Assembly: GCA_949372875.1 (NCBI GenBank)
Contig: CASIAW010000005.1
Span: 98,586-162,585 of the forward strand
DNA: 64,000 nt
Direction of reading: 5' to 3'
From: Candidatus Poseidoniaceae archaeon
GTDB lineage: Archaea > Thermoplasmatota > Poseidoniia > Poseidoniales > Poseidoniaceae
This document shows positions 42,365 to 50,447 of this stretch, piece after piece (the stretch's first letter is position 1; each line of letters begins with the position of its first letter). The notes beneath the pieces are model-generated. The model did no database searches, had not been told where the DNA came from, and was given only the letters and a program-made list of their open reading frames with translations. The position numbers and the translations under genes were made by a program.

Positions 42365-45016
42365 TTAGGACACGAGAGGGTTGGAAACGTATGGCTTTGA
42401 GTCTGTACGTTGAGCCTTAAGGTTGTGAAGAAGAATCGCAGCGCTTGCAGAGAAGATTTGAACAAGAGCGAAAAACGCTTGCCAGGTTAACATGAAGATT
42501 AGTCTTGGATAAGTAGGAGAATATGCATAGAGGCAAAGACATCCCAAAACAAGGAGAGATTGTGCGAGAATAAATGGCATTAGCGGAATCTCTTGTTCTT
42601 GTATGAACATCATCATGACGCACGACGCAATCAAGAGAGGACTTGCAATCATCAAGATCATCCATCCGGTTGAAGGGCTGTTACCAGCTGCGAAATAGCC
42701 TCCTTGAACTGCTACTGCGCCCGGGTCTAATTCTCTTGGGTGTGGACAAATCCCTTCAAAACAGGTTTGAATTCCATTAACTTGACCATAAAGAGTCCAC
42801 CAGAGCAACCACATCAACCAAGGTAACATGGCATAGAACAACCAAAGCCACTGTTGCGATGATTGCCTTCGTTCAAGTCCAGTCCATTTTTTCAAGGCAG
42901 AAACAATTGTTGGGGTGGATGCTAACAAGACGGTAATACAACAAGCAGCCCATGGCCCCCATGAGACCAAAGTATGCAATGCAACTGCATGGATGGTGTG
43001 CATCTTCGAATATTCTCGATTCTCACCGAAAAATGAGTGATGTATAGCAAGCCCATACCCAGCGAGAACAAGGATGAGCATCAATCGCTCAAGAGGGTCA
43101 TAACCGATTTCACGAACGATTACGCCAAGTACGAGTGCTATCCCAAAAAATGTGGTCGCTCGATGCTCATCTTTGGGTAATACGGTGTTTTTCACTACGA
43201 GGAGCATCCAAATGATGAGAAGGCCCGTTAGCAAAAAACCACCTATGCTGACGGCACTCAAATTAATCAGATCTAACATGTAATGCCTTCCAAACAAACG
43301 ACGATGGACCAGAACGATAGCCGATAATGTCAGAGCAAACACTGACAGAAGAGGTATCATAGATTCCTTTGTGCGTTCTGTATCTTTCTCAAGAAGAATT
43401 CCTCCAAGGATGTAATACCAAGGTATGAGGAAAAACCAAAGACGCAGTCCTCCGATACTGATGAGGACAACTGCAAACAGAATGAAAAGGTAATTTCGCT
43501 CTTTCTCATCACTTCTCCAATGTCCCGAGAATGCAAGAACAGAGACGGCAAGCAAGGCGAACATAGCGCTTTGCACCATAGCTTGCGTGAGCGTTCCTTG
43601 GAATACTACTAACGCAAGGAGAGTCAAACCTACGAGGCTCCAAAAACTGGGTTCAAACTTTTTCCATTTAATCGACGTGTTTGGAGCACGACCAAGCGCT
43701 GAGCTTACCAACCAAACCGCACCAAGTGCGCCGAGTCCACGCGGAATCATAGCAGAATAAGCAAGGTTTGCTTGAAAATACATCAATACAAAGCCAAACA
43801 AACCAATACCGCCAAGCTTGATTAATTCGTCTCTTTGAGTCATTTTATTGGCTCCAAACGCATAAGCAACTCCGGCGAGGAGAATGAGTAAAGTGAGAAT
43901 GGATACAATCACATCCAATGTCCTCACTTGAATCGGTTCAGTTTCGATTGATTCCCAATCAACAACCGTTTCTGACAACATGTCTTTGTCTTGAGGATAA
44001 TAAAACACGTGTCTGTTATATCCAGCCTTCCAATTCCATTGCTCCAACGTTGAAATTTCAGAGGATGTGTGGTCCAACATCGCAAGAGGAATCCTTCCTT
44101 GCAGTTGGTTAGGGAAATCGAGAAGCAGTGTGGAGACCATGAATGCGGCGATATCTGGCTGTTTGATGTCAGACCATACTCCAGTATTCACATGCGGTCC
44201 AGAAATAATAGCAGCGACTTCTTGAGTGACTTTTTCAGCAGAACCGTGGGTTCCTGCATCGGTCATGCCGTGATCGGCAGTTATGACAACAGTCCAATCA
44301 GGCGGCACTGTTCGTAAGAGTCGGTCCACTGTCAGGTCAATGGAGAGGAGTTTCTGCCTGTATTCATCGGTTTGAATCCCCCAATGATGGCCGACTTTAT
44401 CCGGTCCAGAAAAGTGTGCAGCAATGACGTTATGTTCTCCGTTTTGAAGCCATTGTGCGGCTACAGTTTCTGTTTCTTCATCGCCTTGATAGTAGTCGCT
44501 ATGGCCTTTGAAAGTATCAACAAAACTGATATTTGGCATACCTTGGTAGATATTCCCCATCACATAGCTTCCAACCATGCCTACAGAATACCTCTCATCT
44601 TGGGATGCGAGAGTCCATGGATCATTGCCACCTGGGTGGCCAAGATTGAAGTTGTTTAATCCATCAATCGGCCTGTTTGGAACTCCAGTCATCAATTCAC
44701 TGATGCATGTCGCAGACAGCGTAAGTGGGCCTGTTTGGATGTTTAATACAGCAGCCGTTTGTTTGTGACTGTTCAGGTTCGGCATGGATTTTTCATCCAG
44801 CATCAATTCTCTTCCAACACCATCCAAAATGATGAGCAGAAATCCTTCGTTTTGACTGATTATGCTCACCGCATCGACTTCTCCAGGTGGAGTGTCTGTG
44901 TCCAGCAAGACATAAGGAGCGGTAATGAACGCTGGAATGAGCATTAAAGCGAGTAGAAAATACAACCACCGTGTTGGAGGTGAACTGTACAGTTCAGCGC
45001 TTTGCGTTGATTCCAT
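42365..45016 (-). CDS. Alkaline-phosphatase-superfamily (type I phosphodiesterase / phosphotransferase) domain fused to a C-terminal polytopic membrane domain. Architecture resembles eukaryotic GPI ethanolamine-phosphate transferases (PigN/PigO-like).
   Basis: N-terminal TM, then FLLIILDGVGRE (metal-binding Asp), GPDKVGHHWG, VVITADHGMTDAGTHGS (AlkP-core His/Asp). After about aa 380 there are at least 12 hydrophobic helices. 883 aa. Confidence 0.55.
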   Translation of the reverse strand: MESTQSAELYSSPPTRWLYFLLALMLIPAFITAPYVLLDTDTPPGEVDAVSIISQNEGFLLIILDGVGRELMLDEKSMPNLNSHKQTAAVLNIQTGPLTLSATCISELMTGVPNRPIDGLNNFNLGHPGGNDPWTLASQDERYSVGMVGSYVMGNIYQGMPNISFVDTFKGHSDYYQGDEETETVAAQWLQNGEHNVIAAHFSGPDKVGHHWGIQTDEYRQKLLSIDLTVDRLLRTVPPDWTVVITADHGMTDAGTHGSAEKVTQEVAAIISGPHVNTGVWSDIKQPDIAAFMVSTLLLDFPNQLQGRIPLAMLDHTSSEISTLEQWNWKAGYNRHVFYYPQDKDMLSETVVDWESIETEPIQVRTLDVIVSILTLLILLAGVAYAFGANKMTQRDELIKLGGIGLFGFVLMYFQANLAYSAMIPRGLGALGAVWLVSSALGRAPNTSIKWKKFEPSFWSLVGLTLLALVVFQGTLTQAMVQSAMFALLAVSVLAFSGHWRSDEKERNYLFILFAVVLISIGGLRLWFFLIPWYYILGGILLEKDTERTKESMIPLLSVFALTLSAIVLVHRRLFGRHYMLDLINLSAVSIGGFLLTGLLIIWMLLVVKNTVLPKDEHRATTFFGIALVLGVIVREIGYDPLERLMLILVLAGYGLAIHHSFFGENREYSKMHTIHAVALHTLVSWGPWAACCITVLLASTPTIVSALKKWTGLERRQSSQQWLWLFYAMLPWLMWLLWWTLYGQVNGIQTCFEGICPHPRELDPGAVAVQGGYFAAGNSPSTGWMILMIASPLLIASCVMMMFIQEQEIPLMPFILAQSLLVLGCLCLYAYSPTYPRLIFMLTWQAFFALVQIFSASAAILLHNLKAQRTDSKPYVSNPLVS

Positions 45017-45066: not shown

Positions 45067-45102
45067 CTGGACAGGTGCCCCCCCTAGCGGGGGGGCGTCC
45101 AG
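45067..45102. terminator. GC-rich interrupted hairpin (6-bp outer + 8-bp inner G/C stem) between two co-oriented minus-strand genes. Candidate terminator / RNA structural element.
   Basis: CTGGAC-aggt-GCCCCCCC-tagc-GGGGGGGC-GTCCAG read directly in the sequence. Lies 44 nt downstream of the lipoprotein stop and 50 nt upstream of the next gene start. Confidence 0.35.
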
Positions 45103-45145: not shown

Positions 45146-46297
45146 TCAACTGTAGGTTCCAATGTCATCAGAGGTGATGCCATAGTGAGCCCAGACATGC
45201 TCGAGGTGAGCAGTAACGTCGTAGGAGGTTCCAAGTTGAGTAGCGTCTTGAAGGTTCAAGATCTCGTTGATTTTGTCTGCACCGTAGTGTCCATCAAAGG
45301 TTTCGTTTGCTGCGTCACAAGCGGATGCATCAGAGTTTCCGACATAAGTTACGTTTCCGTCAGTGTGGATACATGCATTGGTGTGAGCAGCCGAGTATGC
45401 TTCGATTGCCTTCCAGAATGCATATCCTTCAACTTGATACTTCTCGCCGGACTCGTTGCTGTCCATCTTCGAAGTGTACTTGAGAACTGCTTGGGAGTAT
45501 GTAATGACGAGGTTCTTGACAACGGTGTCTGCTGCTGCAGTGTATCCAGCAGAGTCTCCTGCTTGGAGTGCTGCAAGTCCGTCAACCATTGCGGTTTGAG
45601 AAGCAGTGAGAGCGTTTGAGACGCCATTGGTTTCTGTGCCAAAGTCAGCAGCGCGCTTTTCCATTACCTTAGCAGGAGAGCAGCCGTAGTCTTCATCAGG
45701 TCCGTGGAAGAATGCCCATCCTTCGTCCCAGTTGTGTGGAGCGCCGGAGTCGTTGTCGACGTTTCCAGCATCTGCCTTTGCAATTGCTGAGTTCAACTCG
45801 TGAATAGTGTAAGCAACCATTCCCATGTTAACGGTCAACTTTGCAATACCTTGGTATCGAACGGTGTCAGAAACACCAGCGAAGTCGCCTGTGCCGTCCA
45901 TTGCAGCCATGATGTGGTCATCGACTGAACCGGATGCGTCGTAGTATGCATCGTAGCCGTGGTTCTTACCATCAGCAGACGCAAAGCCAGCGAGTGTGCG
46001 GTAAGAGCCATCGCTTTTTTCTGCATTCTTGCCGTTCATGTAGATGTCCTTTGCAGTTGCGAAGTCGTAGCCGCCATCAGAGCTAGCTGCGGTCTTCATG
46101 TCGCAAAGGTCCTTCATGAGAGAGCGGTGGTTGTCAACATTTGATGCATAGGTGTAGCCACCATCTTCAGCATCCATTGCAACGACCGAATCTGCTGCGT
46201 CCGTCGTTTCGTCTTCTTCTGATGCCAAGCAGCCTGCTAATCCAGAAACTGCCATCAATGCAATCAATACTAATCCTTTCAATTTTGTGTGGTTCAT
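45146..46297 (-). CDS. Secreted lipoprotein of unknown function (DGGY/DGSY-repeat containing)
   Basis: Lipobox MNHTKLKGLVLIALMAVSGLAGC. Repeated ...DGGYTYA..., ...DGGYDFA..., ...DGSYRTLAGF... 383 aa. Confidence 0.6.
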   Translation of the reverse strand: MNHTKLKGLVLIALMAVSGLAGCLASEEDETTDAADSVVAMDAEDGGYTYASNVDNHRSLMKDLCDMKTAASSDGGYDFATAKDIYMNGKNAEKSDGSYRTLAGFASADGKNHGYDAYYDASGSVDDHIMAAMDGTGDFAGVSDTVRYQGIAKLTVNMGMVAYTIHELNSAIAKADAGNVDNDSGAPHNWDEGWAFFHGPDEDYGCSPAKVMEKRAADFGTETNGVSNALTASQTAMVDGLAALQAGDSAGYTAAADTVVKNLVITYSQAVLKYTSKMDSNESGEKYQVEGYAFWKAIEAYSAAHTNACIHTDGNVTYVGNSDASACDAANETFDGHYGADKINEILNLQDATQLGTSYDVTAHLEHVWAHYGITSDDIGTYS

Positions 46298-46311
46298 AAT
46301 AATGTCCTCGT

Positions 46312-46358
46312 TTAGGGGGCCCTAAAACCGCCTTATAAATGTTCTTAGGGCGCCCTAA
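46312..46358. promoter_or_regulatory. Two 14-bp palindromes (TTAGGGGGCCCTAA near-perfect; TTAGGGCGCCCTAA perfect), centres 33 bp apart, bracketing a TATA-like box (TTATAAA, 46333-46339) upstream of the lipoprotein gene. Candidate operator pair.
   Basis: Direct reading: 46312-46325 and 46345-46358. The lipoprotein start codon is at 46297. Confidence 0.4.
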
Positions 46359-46492
46359 AAATTAGAGCGTTATGTTATCGCCTTTGTACGGTCCAAACAG
46401 ATGAGAATGAATCGTAGTCGAACCAATAACCGGATAAGACCTTCACAGAAGCATTCTGACAGTCCGACCGAGGTGAAGCCGATGACTATGGC

Positions 46493-46918
46493 TCAGCAAC
46501 AGCCTTCATCACGCATGGGGGCGCTGATGAAAGTAACCTTATCGACATTGGCAGTATTCTGGAGTTGCTCAATAACCGAACGATAGTGAGATGCCTTTCC
46601 AATGCCTTGGATCACATCGACACACGAATGGCTATGTTTGAGACAGCTGTGGTTGTATGAAGTAATCTCAAGTTCACCGGAGTGACGTAAATCGATAAGT
46701 TTATGCTCATTTCCGTGTTGATAGTAGATGACTAAGTGACCTTCAACGACTGTATCATCATCCATATCTGCTAACTCTCCTCTCTGTTGTATTTCAGCAA
46801 AAAGTAAAGCAGCATCTCGAATGAAGCGACTTCGGTTTTGATATCCTGATTTTTTGATTAAGTCTTCAAAGTCCTCGGCAAATTTTTTATCAGCACTAAA
46901 CGAAATGATTTGGCTCAT
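46493..46918 (-). CDS. nikR: NikR-like metal-responsive transcriptional regulator (N-terminal ribbon-helix-helix + C-terminal ACT-like metal-binding domain)
   Basis: N-terminal DKKFAEDFEDLIKKSGYQNRSRFIRDAALLF resembles the NikR RHH region (...LDxLxxxRGYxNRSEAIRD...). C-terminal domain has HLVIYYQHGNEH and HSCLKHSHSCVDV, His/Cys clusters placed like the NikR high-affinity metal site. 141 aa. Confidence 0.6.
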   Translation of the reverse strand: MSQIISFSADKKFAEDFEDLIKKSGYQNRSRFIRDAALLFAEIQQRGELADMDDDTVVEGHLVIYYQHGNEHKLIDLRHSGELEITSYNHSCLKHSHSCVDVIQGIGKASHYRSVIEQLQNTANVDKVTFISAPMRDEGCC

Positions 46919-46938: not shown

Positions 46939-46974
46939 CACTAATAATAACTGCCTAGGTGGTAATTATTAGTG
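46939..46974. promoter_or_regulatory. Perfect 10-N16-10 inverted repeat (CACTAATAAT-N16-ATTATTAGTG) in the divergent promoter between the nikR-like gene and the ZnuA-like gene. Candidate NikR-type operator.
   Basis: Read directly. The spacer centre contains CCTAGG. A TATA-like TTAAATA (46977-46983) sits about 27 nt upstream of the ATG at 47007. E. coli NikR is known to bind a GTATGA-N16-TCATAC dyad. Confidence 0.5.
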
Positions 46975-47006: not shown

Positions 47007-50000
47007 ATGAACAACAACCGTATGAGAGTCGTTTTCGTAAGCCTGATTATGATTTTTTCAAGCCTTGCTGGATGTATTGGCGATGAAGAATTGGAAGCTA
47101 TTGAAGAGGCCACTGACCTCTTGAATGATGCAACAAACTCCACAATGGATGGCAACAATACCACAACCATTGGGATGTTGGGATCCGTAATGGTTTCAAC
47201 ATACCACGTCGGAGAACTCGTCAAAGCAATCGCTGGCGAACATGTCGACATGGAATACATGAGTCTTGACAACATCCCCGTCCACGATTACGAACCATCT
47301 GCATCGGATCTCATCCGACTTCAGAACTCTGACGTTTTCTTCTACCACGGACTAGGACTCGAACCCTGGGTCGATGCAACGCTTGACTCCTTGGGTAACG
47401 ATGCTCCAACAGCCGTTCAAGTTCACACCATGCCTAGTGGGGAAGAGACCCTCGATTATGAATCGTTACTCGTCTCTGATTTGTGCAAAACTCTCTTAGA
47501 AGGGCCATACGAAACCGTTGAACTTGTTGATGAAGAAGAGCACGCTGATGATGTTAAAATCCTAGCTGAATACATGGCGCATAACATCACATTCCCTCAC
47601 GAAGAGCATGACGACCATGCTGATGAAGAAGGTGACCATGATGACCACGCTGAGGAAGAAGACGGGCATGACGGCCATGCTGATGAAGAAGGCAACCATT
47701 CAGAAGAAGGTCACGAAGACCACGACGCTCATGATGATGGCCACGAAGGCCATGCCCACCTTGTTGCTGAACAAACTCTTTCCAACCCTGCAGGATGTCC
47801 TGCTGACACAATGATTTCCATATTCCACCTCGAAGAAGGGGAATACATCATTGAATTCGATGCAGAACATGCAGATGATTTCACAATGGCAGTTCTCAAG
47901 ATGCTTGGCGGTCACGCACACCACGACCATGGTGACCACGGTGACGAACACGGAGATGAACATGATGACCATGATGGTCATGGTGACGAACACTTCGTTT
48001 GCCACGATATGACAACTCACGAAAACACCAACCACACCACTGAGGAAGAATGTGTAGCCGCAGGCCACATGTGGATGAAAGAAGACGGTCACGACGACCA
48101 TGAAGGCGACTACTGCCACGATACAACAACTCACGAAAACACCAACCATACCACTGAGGAAGAATGTGTTGCCGCAGGCCACACGTGGATGGAAGAAGCC
48201 GATCACGATGACCATGATGGCCACGACGACCATGATGGCCACGACGACCATGACGACCACGATGGCCATGACGACCACGATGGCCATGACGACCCGTGCG
48301 CCGACCACTATGACCACGACGACCATGATGACCACGGAGATCACATGACTGCAGAAGAAGCGCTTGAAGAAGCCGATTCAAACAACGACAGTCTCCTTTC
48401 TTGGGATGAATTCTGGGATTCCTGGAACGACGATGGGCACGATGACCATGACGACCATGACGACCATGATGAAGAACATCACGGCGTCTTCGTATTATTC
48501 CCTGACAACTGCATGCTCATGTATGCTGCTGAAGACGATATGCTGCCTGAAAACGCAACTGGATGGAACCTCACAACATCTGCAATGATGGGAGATGACA
48601 CACTCGAGCTCAATTACTCCGTTCATGAAACATACGGCACTAGTGTCAGTGGAATCAACGGATTTATGGCTCCAGAAGATTATTCCTGGTATTGGCAACT
48701 TATGCTCTGGAACGGCACAGAAAACAACACTGGCTGGGAAGTCAGCAATGTTGGTATTGACTCTGTAATGATTCCTGAAATGACAGAACACGTCGCTTGG
48801 ATGCCAAATTCCTCGGACATGTCATATTTGCCAGACCTCAGTATGATGCATGATGACCATGATGACCATGATGACCATGATGGCCATGATGACTTCGAAA
48901 GAACATTCCACTGCAGTTCTACCGTTGGTGGCACTCCAGACACAGAAATTCCGTTCTCTCAAGTGAACGATGGCACTGAAGACTGTGGCGATGGTTCCGA
49001 TGAGCCTCAAGACTTTGACGGTGATGGTATTGTTGACAACTGGTTCGACTGCATGGATGGTTCAAATGTGTCCATGGAATTCGTTAACGACGGATATGAT
49101 GACTGCCCTGATGGTGATGATGAATCTCACGATGATGACCACAGTGACAATGAAGGAGCGCCAACGCCTCAAGAATTTATCAATATGACTGATACTGACG
49201 GAAATGGAACAATGAGCTTTGATGAATTCATTGCATTCATGAATTCACCTGATCCTGACGGTGAACATGAAGATGATGATGAGTCATTGCCACAATCTAT
49301 GGTTGACGAACTCAGAGTAATATTCGATAACAACGATGCAGATCAGTCCGGAGAGTTAGATCTCGATGAACTCGACCAATTTATCATTGACACGGATGAG
49401 TACTTTATGTCAATGGATGGCGGTGATGGCGAACCGACTCAAGAGGAACTCCAGTTCCTCTTCAACGCATCCGATGCAGACGGCGACCAATTGTTGAACG
49501 TTACCGAACTTGGTGCATTCATGGAAATGCTCGAAGACCTCATGGAAGATGACCACCATGATGATCACGACGACCATGACAATCACGACGACCATGACGA
49601 CCACGGCGACGATAACCACGCTGACGAAGAAGATCACCATCCTGTCGGCTATGTGACCCTTCACGTTAATGCTGAAGGCGACTATGGTTTCGCTCTACCT
49701 ATGGATGTTGAATTCCACATCATGATGGCCGAAGGCGGCCATGACGACCATGCTGGCCATGATGATCACGACGACCATGATGACCATGCTGGAGAAGAAG
49801 GCGACCATGCTGAAGAAGAAGGCGACCATGATGACCACGCTGATGAAGAAGGTAACCATACTGATGAAGAAGGTGACCATGATGACCACGCTGACGAAGA
49901 AGGAGCTCTCGATTATGACCCTCACAGCTGGCTTAGCCCACTTGCTTTCAAGGCACAAGTGAATGTTGTTCTCGACGGACTAACCACTGCTTTCCCTGCT

Positions 50001-50447
50001 GGAGAAGCAGTCTTCAAGGTAAACGCTGAGGCATATGCTGCTCAATTAACAGCTCTTGACGTTTCATTTGACGCTGCCTTCGGAGAAGGCGGCCAATGCA
50101 TGGCTGGAGGTCAACAAAAGACTGTGGCTTCAAACCACAACGCTTACTCCTACATCGCAGTTGAATACGGAATCCAATTCATGACCGTTCACGGACTTGA
50201 CCCAGAAGGAGAACCATCTCCTGAAGATGTCGCTAAGGTTGTTAACTTCATCAAGGAAGAAGGAATCACTGTTCTGTTTGTTGAAGAATACACCGACCAA
50301 TCTTCAGTGCAAAGCATTGTTGATGAAACAGGTGTGTCGATTCAAATCCTTTACACCATGGAAATGGCACCAAGCGATTCTGATGACAATTACATGACAA
50401 TGATGACCAAGAACCTTGCAAACCTCGTAGCCGGTATCGGATGCTGA
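47007..50447 (+). CDS. znuA: ZnuA/TroA-family (cluster-9) metal-binding lipoprotein with an interlobe His/Asp/Glu-rich loop hyper-expanded to about 800 aa, containing EF-hand-like and LDLa-like calcium-binding modules
   Basis: Lipobox MNNNRMRVVFVSLIMIFSSLAGC. N-lobe motif ...DNIPVHDYEPSASDLIRLQNSDVFFYHGLGLEPWV... C-lobe DPHSWLSPLAF...ASNHNAYSYIAVEYGIQ...EPSPEDVAKVVNFIKEEGITVLFVEE... (TroA-like). Between them are HDDHDGHDDHDDHDG-type runs, DTDGNGTMSFDEF / DNNDADQSGELDLDEL / DADGDQLLNVTEL (EF-hand DxDxDG...E loops) and two VNDGxxDCxDGSDE modules. Confidence 0.85.
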   Translation: MNNNRMRVVFVSLIMIFSSLAGCIGDEELEAIEEATDLLNDATNSTMDGNNTTTIGMLGSVMVSTYHVGELVKAIAGEHVDMEYMSLDNIPVHDYEPSASDLIRLQNSDVFFYHGLGLEPWVDATLDSLGNDAPTAVQVHTMPSGEETLDYESLLVSDLCKTLLEGPYETVELVDEEEHADDVKILAEYMAHNITFPHEEHDDHADEEGDHDDHAEEEDGHDGHADEEGNHSEEGHEDHDAHDDGHEGHAHLVAEQTLSNPAGCPADTMISIFHLEEGEYIIEFDAEHADDFTMAVLKMLGGHAHHDHGDHGDEHGDEHDDHDGHGDEHFVCHDMTTHENTNHTTEEECVAAGHMWMKEDGHDDHEGDYCHDTTTHENTNHTTEEECVAAGHTWMEEADHDDHDGHDDHDGHDDHDDHDGHDDHDGHDDPCADHYDHDDHDDHGDHMTAEEALEEADSNNDSLLSWDEFWDSWNDDGHDDHDDHDDHDEEHHGVFVLFPDNCMLMYAAEDDMLPENATGWNLTTSAMMGDDTLELNYSVHETYGTSVSGINGFMAPEDYSWYWQLMLWNGTENNTGWEVSNVGIDSVMIPEMTEHVAWMPNSSDMSYLPDLSMMHDDHDDHDDHDGHDDFERTFHCSSTVGGTPDTEIPFSQVNDGTEDCGDGSDEPQDFDGDGIVDNWFDCMDGSNVSMEFVNDGYDDCPDGDDESHDDDHSDNEGAPTPQEFINMTDTDGNGTMSFDEFIAFMNSPDPDGEHEDDDESLPQSMVDELRVIFDNNDADQSGELDLDELDQFIIDTDEYFMSMDGGDGEPTQEELQFLFNASDADGDQLLNVTELGAFMEMLEDLMEDDHHDDHDDHDNHDDHDDHGDDNHADEEDHHPVGYVTLHVNAEGDYGFALPMDVEFHIMMAEGGHDDHAGHDDHDDHDDHAGEEGDHAEEEGDHDDHADEEGNHTDEEGDHDDHADEEGALDYDPHSWLSPLAFKAQVNVVLDGLTTAFPAGEAVFKVNAEAYAAQLTALDVSFDAAFGEGGQCMAGGQQKTVASNHNAYSYIAVEYGIQFMTVHGLDPEGEPSPEDVAKVVNFIKEEGITVLFVEEYTDQSSVQSIVDETGVSIQILYTMEMAPSDSDDNYMTMMTKNLANLVAGIGC

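Follow-up and report, generated by a model that had tools for sequence, protein, structure and literature searches.

Twin palindromes bracketing the TATA box of a FEA1-related lipoprotein gene in Marine Group II archaea, probable operators of a DtxR/TroR-type iron-dependent repressor

The closest described system is that of TroR, a DtxR-family regulator of Haloferax volcanii, for which the motif TTTAGGC-NNN-CCTAAA was determined by ChIP-seq (bioRxiv 10.1101/2023.08.16.553580). TroR represses the iron-uptake genes in iron-replete cells; the siderophore promoter carries two TroR motifs by its TATA box, either of which suffices on its own for iron repression, and some genes such as dpsA are activated by TroR (bioRxiv 10.1101/2023.08.16.553580). 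In the crystal structures of IdeR-DNA complexes, every monomer contacts a single CCTAA repeat, with one dimer taking repeats 1 and 3 of TTAGGTTAGSCTAACCTAA, giving TTAGG-N4-(S)CTAA, while 14-bp 'half sites' are bound by a single IdeR dimer with an affinity of about 80-100 nM (PMC8464063). The kind of element described below is already known, its motif having been characterised experimentally with TroR in another archaeal order. No account of iron regulation, of DtxR or of FEA1 in Marine Group II was found in the literature searched, and within these limits a DtxR/TroR-type iron switch would be new for this group. From the work of Bell et al. in 1999, MDR1 of Archaeoglobus fulgidus is said to be a metal-dependent archaeal repressor of the DtxR family with multiple operators overlapping its promoter, and reportedly blocks the recruitment of RNA polymerase, not the binding of TBP and TFB.

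The window, that is, the whole stretch of 64,000 nucleotides analysed here, belongs to a Marine Group II archaeon (Poseidoniales), in line with the archaeal host assumed by the original prediction, and archaeal promoter logic therefore applies. The promoter under study directs transcription of the lipoprotein gene 45146-46297 on the minus strand, and its elements are as follows, from the upstream side to the gene.

46345..46358, palindromic and without strand assignment: putative distal operator (iron box 1), TTAGGGCGCCCTAA, a perfect palindrome at -61..-48 from the ATG
46333..46339, minus strand: predicted TATA box TTTATAA (TTATAAA on the plus strand), at -42..-36 from the ATG, between both operators
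46312..46325, without strand assignment: putative proximal operator (iron box 2), TTAGGGGGCCCTAA, at -28..-15 from the ATG; TTAGGGCCCCCTAA on the coding strand
46305..46309, minus strand: Shine-Dalgarno-like GAGGA, at -12..-8 from the ATG
45146..46297, minus strand: predicted regulated gene, coding for a FEA1-related lipoprotein of 383 aa (Pfam and NCBIfam profiles; lipobox LAGC)

The coding (minus) strand of the promoter region reads aatttTTAGGGCGCCCTAAgaacaTTTATAAggcggttTTAGGGCCCCCTAAacGAGGAcattattATG. Both palindromes, for which the original prediction had given 46312-46325 and 46345-46358, were found exactly as described in coordinates and letters, and the TTATAAA that they flank lies at the proper distance from the lipoprotein start, 36-42 nt before the ATG at 46297. 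They share the core TTAGG-N4-CCTAA, and their start-to-start distance is 33 bp. The proximal box, TTAGGGGGCCCTAA, has perfect 6-bp arms, TTAGGG and CCCTAA, around a non-palindromic GG centre. In the distal box, the coding-strand 3' half CCTAAg stops 5 nt short of the TATA box, at the BRE position, and this CCTAA(a/g) half possibly forms part of the BRE itself. The geometry of archaeal promoters suggests that TTTATAA at 46333-46339 acts as the TATA box. The transcription start site (TSS) of archaeal genes is usually found about 24-27 nt 3' of the TATA-box centre, and the start is therefore placed about 12-15 nt before the ATG, which would be the 3' edge of the proximal box.

The gene had been described in the original prediction as a lipoprotein gene, neither its family nor the DtxR-type nature of the motif being recognised. 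Its product matched the Pfam family PF07692 Fea1 ('low iron-inducible periplasmic protein') with E 1e-30 and 107.5 bits against a cutoff of 25, and passed the NCBIfam equivalog NF038033 FEA1_rel_lipo (321.5 bits, cutoff 250). The N-terminus, MNHTKLKGLVLIALMAVSGLAGC, includes a signal peptide with ...SGLAGC. With a profile score above the curated cutoff and a lipoprotein signal peptide, the product is a member of the FEA1 family. Identical and near-identical copies of the lipoprotein are present on marine metagenome contigs, and the homologues carry labels such as 'FEA1-related lipoprotein [Candidatus Thalassarchaeum sp.]', Poseidoniales or Poseidoniaceae. Downstream of this gene, hereafter fea1, a short inverted repeat, GCCCCCCC-TAGC-GGGGGGGC (45077-45096), could pair into a G/C stem of 8 bp closed by a loop of 4 nt; it falls within the 129 nt that separate the stop of fea1 (45146) from the following gene of that strand (42365-45016), and may mark the 3' end of a transcript or serve as a processing hairpin. 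The only Rfam match in the window was a tRNA.

When the whole 64-kb window was scanned for TTAGG-N4-CCTAA with up to 1 mismatch, only the two sites described above were detected, both being exact. Allowing 1 or 2 mismatches brought up no further copy in the window, leaving no second local target, the znuA promoter included. By simple arithmetic, exact matches are expected by chance at about 64000 x 4^-10 = 0.06 per window, and shuffled sequences, with up to 1 mismatch allowed, gave 0.77 matches per window. This last figure could be taken to mean that the palindromes arose by chance, or that they represent a generic promoter element of the lineage with no specific regulator, the more so as the 3' half CCTAAA looks like an A-rich BRE. 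The motif is, however, missing from every other promoter in the window. Furthermore, when exact sites were located in 516 kb of related archaeal loci, nearly all fell into fea1 promoters, dtxR intergenic regions and one further twin-site promoter, so that the random occurrence within coding regions that the original prediction had named as its own refutation was not observed.

For comparison of orthologous promoters, a scan with one genome per species yielded 80 loci with fea1 relatives; the true start codons were re-derived from the lipoprotein signal, and the upstream regions were aligned at the ATG. Of the 55 promoters from Poseidoniales and Marine Group III, 52 carried two or more sites in the 140 nt before the start when up to 2 mismatches were allowed, against a background of 2.9e-4 sites per position over 461 kb from these loci. 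The spacing was 33-34 bp in 31 of 57 successive site pairs. The recurrent architecture in Poseidoniales, ttTAGG-N4-CCTAa / ~7 nt / TTATATA / ~8 nt / ttTAGG-N4-CCTAaa / GAGG / ATG, is kept in genomes whose FEA1 shares only 57-96% identity with that of the window, and the fea1 promoters of Marine Group III show the same layout with a third box. Equivalents of the distal site are located at about -61 to -64 in most orthologous promoters and those of the proximal site at about -27 to -30, the latter being at times degenerate (TTCGG); a TTATATA-like element at the TATA position and GAGG at the Shine-Dalgarno position are conserved in the alignment. Among 70 sites, the window excluded, the bases flanking the core (T before, A after), on which the sites had not been selected, were 99% conserved, and the central four bases were nearly free. 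Sequences farther upstream are unconserved and the upstream neighbor varies, being a divergent dtxR in Marine Group III and tRNA-Gln or other genes elsewhere. Since the layout is kept while the farther upstream sequence and the neighbor change, the element is taken, from this alignment, to belong to the fea1 promoter and to be under selection as a palindromic site for protein binding. The layout that the original prediction likened to that of archaeal repressors or activators is conserved in about 50 species, with one site abutting the BRE and TATA box and the other lying between the TATA box and the expected TSS, and it matches that of the experimentally characterised repressor system of TroR in H. 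volcanii.

The comparison across orthologous promoters excludes a chance origin of the palindromes. The sites are conserved at these promoters, and elsewhere the motif is confined to iron-related genes. The chance or generic-element reading is extremely improbable and was effectively refuted by the window scan, the count of 52/55 promoters and the confinement to iron genes.

In one Poseidoniales clade, tRNA-Gln(CTG) lies directly before the fea1 promoter (L015, L020, L023, L024, L027, L028, L029 and L056). In these eight loci the tRNA gene is located about 110 nt upstream of fea1. The neighborhood of fea1 is thus not conserved, in contrast to the twin boxes.

The same alignment bears on the reading that the two palindromes pair as a 15-bp RNA hairpin, which would terminate or attenuate read-through from the upstream gene. 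The arms 46311-46325 and 46345-46359 are 93% complementary, and the minus-strand RNA is predicted to fold with -24.2 kcal/mol (z = -2.45). Two copies of any palindromic consensus are, however, complementary by construction, and the four central positions of one site change independently of those of the other. A hairpin of this kind has no equivalent in the layouts with three sites, in those with spacings of 15-21 bp or in promoters with one detectable site. Whereas the upstream gene varies among genomes, the distance of the sites to the TATA box and the ATG is fixed, and at least the distal site is located upstream of the fea1 TSS and hence would not be transcribed from the fea1 promoter. A hairpin or terminator function is highly improbable; it was rejected as a trivial product of two like palindromes that does not fit the three-site and variable-spacing layouts.

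The regulator gene nearest to fea1 codes for a weak NikR-like protein (RHH plus NikR_C; 46493-46918, minus strand), located 195 nt upstream on the same strand, and the genes for a ZnuA/ZnuC/ZnuB transporter are divergent from it. Given this position, and the binding of RHH proteins to short repeats as dimers or tetramers, the NikR-like protein could be the factor that binds the palindromes and couples the lipoprotein to the metal locus. Against this stands its distribution: the gene accompanies fea1 only in the window and in L001-L006, all from the same species, and was not found in the other Poseidoniales and Marine Group III loci, which keep the palindromes. Moreover, its own divergent promoter carries a repeat of NikR geometry. 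Operators of NikR have the order half-site / N16 / half-site, as in E. coli GTATGA-N16-TCATAC. This reading is very unlikely, and the neighbor was rejected as the conserved binding factor, there being no co-occurrence with the palindromes outside this species. Co-regulation of the lipoprotein with the ZnuABC/NikR-like surface or metal module, as originally proposed, was likewise not upheld, the neighborhood being restricted to this species; the other targets of the motif are FTR1, a transferrin-like binding protein, FeoB and dtxR, not the zinc locus. The suggestion of 'a different dimeric factor' fared better: the NikR-like protein is not the conserved partner, and a DtxR-family dimer is the best candidate.

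Two further features of this neighborhood were noted. The perfect 10-bp inverted repeat CACTAATAAT-N16-ATTATTAGTG (46939-46974) separates the NikR-like gene (46493-46918, minus strand) from the divergent znuA (47007-50447, plus strand), in the promoter region of both, and is probably, by analogy, the real site of the NikR-like protein. The product of 47007-50447 is a ZnuA-family binding lipoprotein of 1146 aa, with residues 934-1142 as the best ZnuA-domain stretch; the domain is broken by a very long His/Asp/Glu-rich insert that includes EF-hand pairs and a Cys-rich module like that of the glucosidase II beta subunit (PRKCSH-like). The length of the insert differs among otherwise identical contigs, with products of 1146-1166 aa.

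Candidates for the conserved regulator came from the related loci. These loci were searched with a DtxR sequence, and the matches were confirmed by their Pfam domains. In this search no DtxR-family gene was detected in the window or in the Group II fea1 loci. In two Marine Group III loci (L061 and L062), a DtxR-family gene is directly divergent from fea1, with three boxes in the common intergenic region, and its product consists of PF01325, PF02742 and FeoA domains. Many homologues of this Group III regulator are named 'metal-dependent transcriptional regulator [Candidatus Poseidoniales archaeon]' or assigned to Poseidoniia, and P0223 is a 68%-identical homologue on Poseidoniales contigs; the presence of the regulator is established at the level of the order Poseidoniales rather than of the genome of this species. 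In L087, dtxR is divergent from the gene for the iron permease FTR1, and in a variant of this arrangement, L089, from that for a transferrin-like ABC binding protein. Each of these two intergenic regions contains three TTAGG-N4-CCTAA boxes around two TATA-like elements, the pattern that would be expected for autoregulation together with control of an iron transporter.

In several of these loci, a DsrE-family gene overlaps the downstream end of dtxR of Poseidoniales or Group III by 4 nt and is itself followed by a thioredoxin gene (L087:10660-11415, L089:9481-10236, L126, L135, L159). A twin-box match in L152 lies directly upstream of a thioredoxin gene. The iron regulon may thus be linked to thiol or sulfur-transfer proteins.

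P0223 aligned without gaps to DtxR (1fwz) over residues 4-120. The primary-site ligands of DtxR, Met10, Cys102, Glu105 and His106, correspond to M13, C105, E108 and H109 of P0223 and are all conserved, as they are in the ten Marine Group II/III homologues aligned, while H79 and H98, the ligands of the ancillary site, have been lost. In its recognition helix, KPASVTEM, P0223 departs from DtxR/IdeR at base-contacting positions (S37K, P39A, Q43E), and the structural analogy to DtxR/IdeR is therefore indirect. Against the NCBIfam model NF053665, P0223 scored 46.5 bits with a cutoff of 290, and it stayed below every NCBIfam equivalog cutoff, including all those for MntR. By these profiles P0223 is classed as a member of the DtxR family (PF01325 plus PF02742) outside any NCBIfam equivalog subfamily.

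The same operator and the same regulator family could serve a different signal, Mn or Zn, or the sites could mediate activation. The best partial NCBIfam matches of P0223 are indeed MntR models, the JGI label is 'Mn-dependent', and the recognition helix is MntR-like; TroR activates dpsA, and the fea1 gene of the window lies beside a ZnuABC transporter of the zinc/manganese type. The targets of the motif are, however, iron genes, namely FTR1, the transferrin-like binding protein, FeoB and the FEA1 family, and the Znu neighborhood is species-specific. The Met/Cys/Glu/His set is of the Fe type; in the Mn-type relative 8pvt, by contrast, Met and Cys are replaced by Asp and Glu, and in the NRAMP-linked homologue of L094 Glu stands in place of Met. 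As to activation, sites on both sides of the TATA box of an archaeal promoter that also occupy the stretch directly before the TSS hold the position of a repressor, as is well established. The Mn, Zn or activation reading is unlikely. The Met/Cys/Glu/His ligands together with the iron-gene regulon favor Fe(II) as the probable signal, and the sign of regulation is deduced from the position of the sites, TroR being a regulator that activates some genes too.

The best explanation of these results is that the twin palindromes are probably operators of a metal-dependent repressor of the DtxR family, similar to TroR and IdeR, which would switch fea1 off under iron-replete conditions. Each TTAGG-N4-CCTAA would accept one dimer of a DtxR-type regulator, with one winged-helix monomer per CCTAA pentamer. 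When loaded with Fe(II), a first dimer would bind the distal box, abutting or overlapping the BRE just upstream of the TATA box, and a second the proximal box, which lies past the TATA box and before the transcription start. With about three helical turns between them, the two dimers would sit roughly on one face of the DNA, on either side of the TATA box, and hinder both the binding of TFB/TBP and the recruitment of RNA polymerase. The fea1 gene would be transcribed when iron is scarce and shut off when the cell is iron-replete.

The content of the regulon beyond fea1 was estimated by an unbiased scan of metagenomes for two boxes 15-24 bp apart, in which the flanking genes were classed by similarity to reference proteins. 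In at least 12 marine low-GC contigs the adjacent gene, read away from the boxes, coded for a transferrin-like binding protein; 9 matches adjoined a dtxR homologue, 5 the gene for FTR1 and 1 fea1, and in L125 the neighbor was FeoB. In other taxa the adjacent genes were NRAMP and dtxR (L094) and those for haloarchaeal ABC binding proteins (L097, L100, L109), and a few matches were simple repeats. Together with L087, L089 and the Group III loci, the scan shows the motif at other iron-homeostasis genes and at dtxR itself within the lineage.

FEA1-related genes are common to marine archaea and to bacteria of the Acidimicrobiales type, with 40-50% identity (L064-L086: marine Actinomycetota and other bacteria). 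In marine Actinomycetota, the core TAGG-N4-CCTA was detected upstream of fea1 in 8/20 loci; a perfect 19-bp IdeR box precedes the bacterial fea1 of L083, and an IdeR gene adjoins it in L078 and L079. The comparison hints at a spread of an iron-regulated gene across domains.

A second promoter with twin TTAGG-N4-CCTAA boxes was noted in nine related loci. The boxes are spaced by 32 bp with a TATA element between them, and are followed by about 210 nt that are conserved without a conserved ORF. The loci of this candidate noncoding RNA (ncRNA) are as follows.

L038:1632-1900, L040:1648-1912, L041:1625-1890, L055:1070-1335, L057:756-1022: candidate ncRNA
L059:1322-1587, L036:1649-1900: candidate ncRNA
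L124:609-875, L155:198-465, both in reverse orientation: candidate ncRNA

The predicted consensus structure has 46 pairs with 93% of cells paired. Compensatory changes were found in 17 pairs, as compared with 8.9 +/- 1.6 in shuffles (0/500 reach 17) and 0-7 in slid controls, and the GGAAGG and CCUUCC blocks are invariant. No Rfam match was found for this element, and it is absent from the 64-kb window. The element is a candidate for a structured ncRNA of Poseidoniales under the control of iron boxes and, if this is true, the RNA of about 210 nt is possibly an archaeal counterpart of the iron-sparing small RNAs.

Tentatively, and with somewhat less than even confidence, we propose a hitherto undescribed DtxR/TroR-type regulon of the uncultured Marine Groups II and III, of which the twin boxes would be one part and in which an algal-type FEA1 surface protein (phytotransferrin-related), the permease FTR1 and a transferrin-like ABC system stand under one iron sensor, joined in some Poseidoniales by the ncRNA of about 210 nt. 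Marine Group II is among the most abundant microbes of the surface ocean and has no cultured member, so that its regulation is readable from sequence only. A conserved iron box would provide a sequence marker for listing the iron-responsive genes of this group in metagenomes, and leads to a testable prediction for metatranscriptomes of iron-limited versus iron-amended waters. It also gives indirect support for a role of the archaeal FEA1-related lipoprotein in iron acquisition, like that of its algal relatives.

Compared with known systems, the cis-element is ordinary for the DtxR family, and it extends the TroR system of H. volcanii to another order. The metal regulator sites of NikR resemble the present ones in being palindromic and beside a NikR-like gene, but the half-sites of one NikR operator are about 16 bp apart, which fits 46939-46974 and not the twin 14-bp palindromes. 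The operators of MDR1 differ in being reportedly located 3' of the TATA box and at the operon of MDR1 itself. The 19-bp iron box of IdeR/DtxR in Actinobacteria (TTAGGTTAGSCTAACCTAA) shares with the window the CCTAA pentamer and the 4-bp gap per dimer, and the Met/Cys/Glu/His primary site of its regulator is conserved in P0223. In Actinobacteria, however, two dimers overlap on one 19-bp box, whereas the window has two separate one-dimer boxes 33 bp apart that bracket an archaeal TATA box, and P0223 differs from IdeR/DtxR in the base-contacting residues S37K, P39A and Q43E and in its unconserved ancillary site. Both sites of the window have the geometry of a one-dimer operator, with inverted CCTAA-type pentamers 4 bp apart. 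The agreement is closest with TroR: TTTAGGC-NNN-CCTAAA equals tTTAGG-N4-CCTAAa, the motif of the window being the same, and several copies per promoter are usual in H. volcanii. In haloarchaea-like metagenome contigs (GC 0.65-0.70), the same sandwich of site, TATA-like element and site is located before the genes for ABC binding proteins. The H. volcanii motif lies about 100 nt before the start codons, unlike the sites at -61 and -28 of the window, and its target is siderophore biosynthesis, while that of the window is a FEA1-family lipoprotein in another archaeal order with no cultured representative. The likeness to TroR rests on the motif, with binding, iron response and regulator known in H. 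volcanii and predicted here, and on this basis the boxes of the window are best filed as putative one-dimer operators of the DtxR/TroR type.
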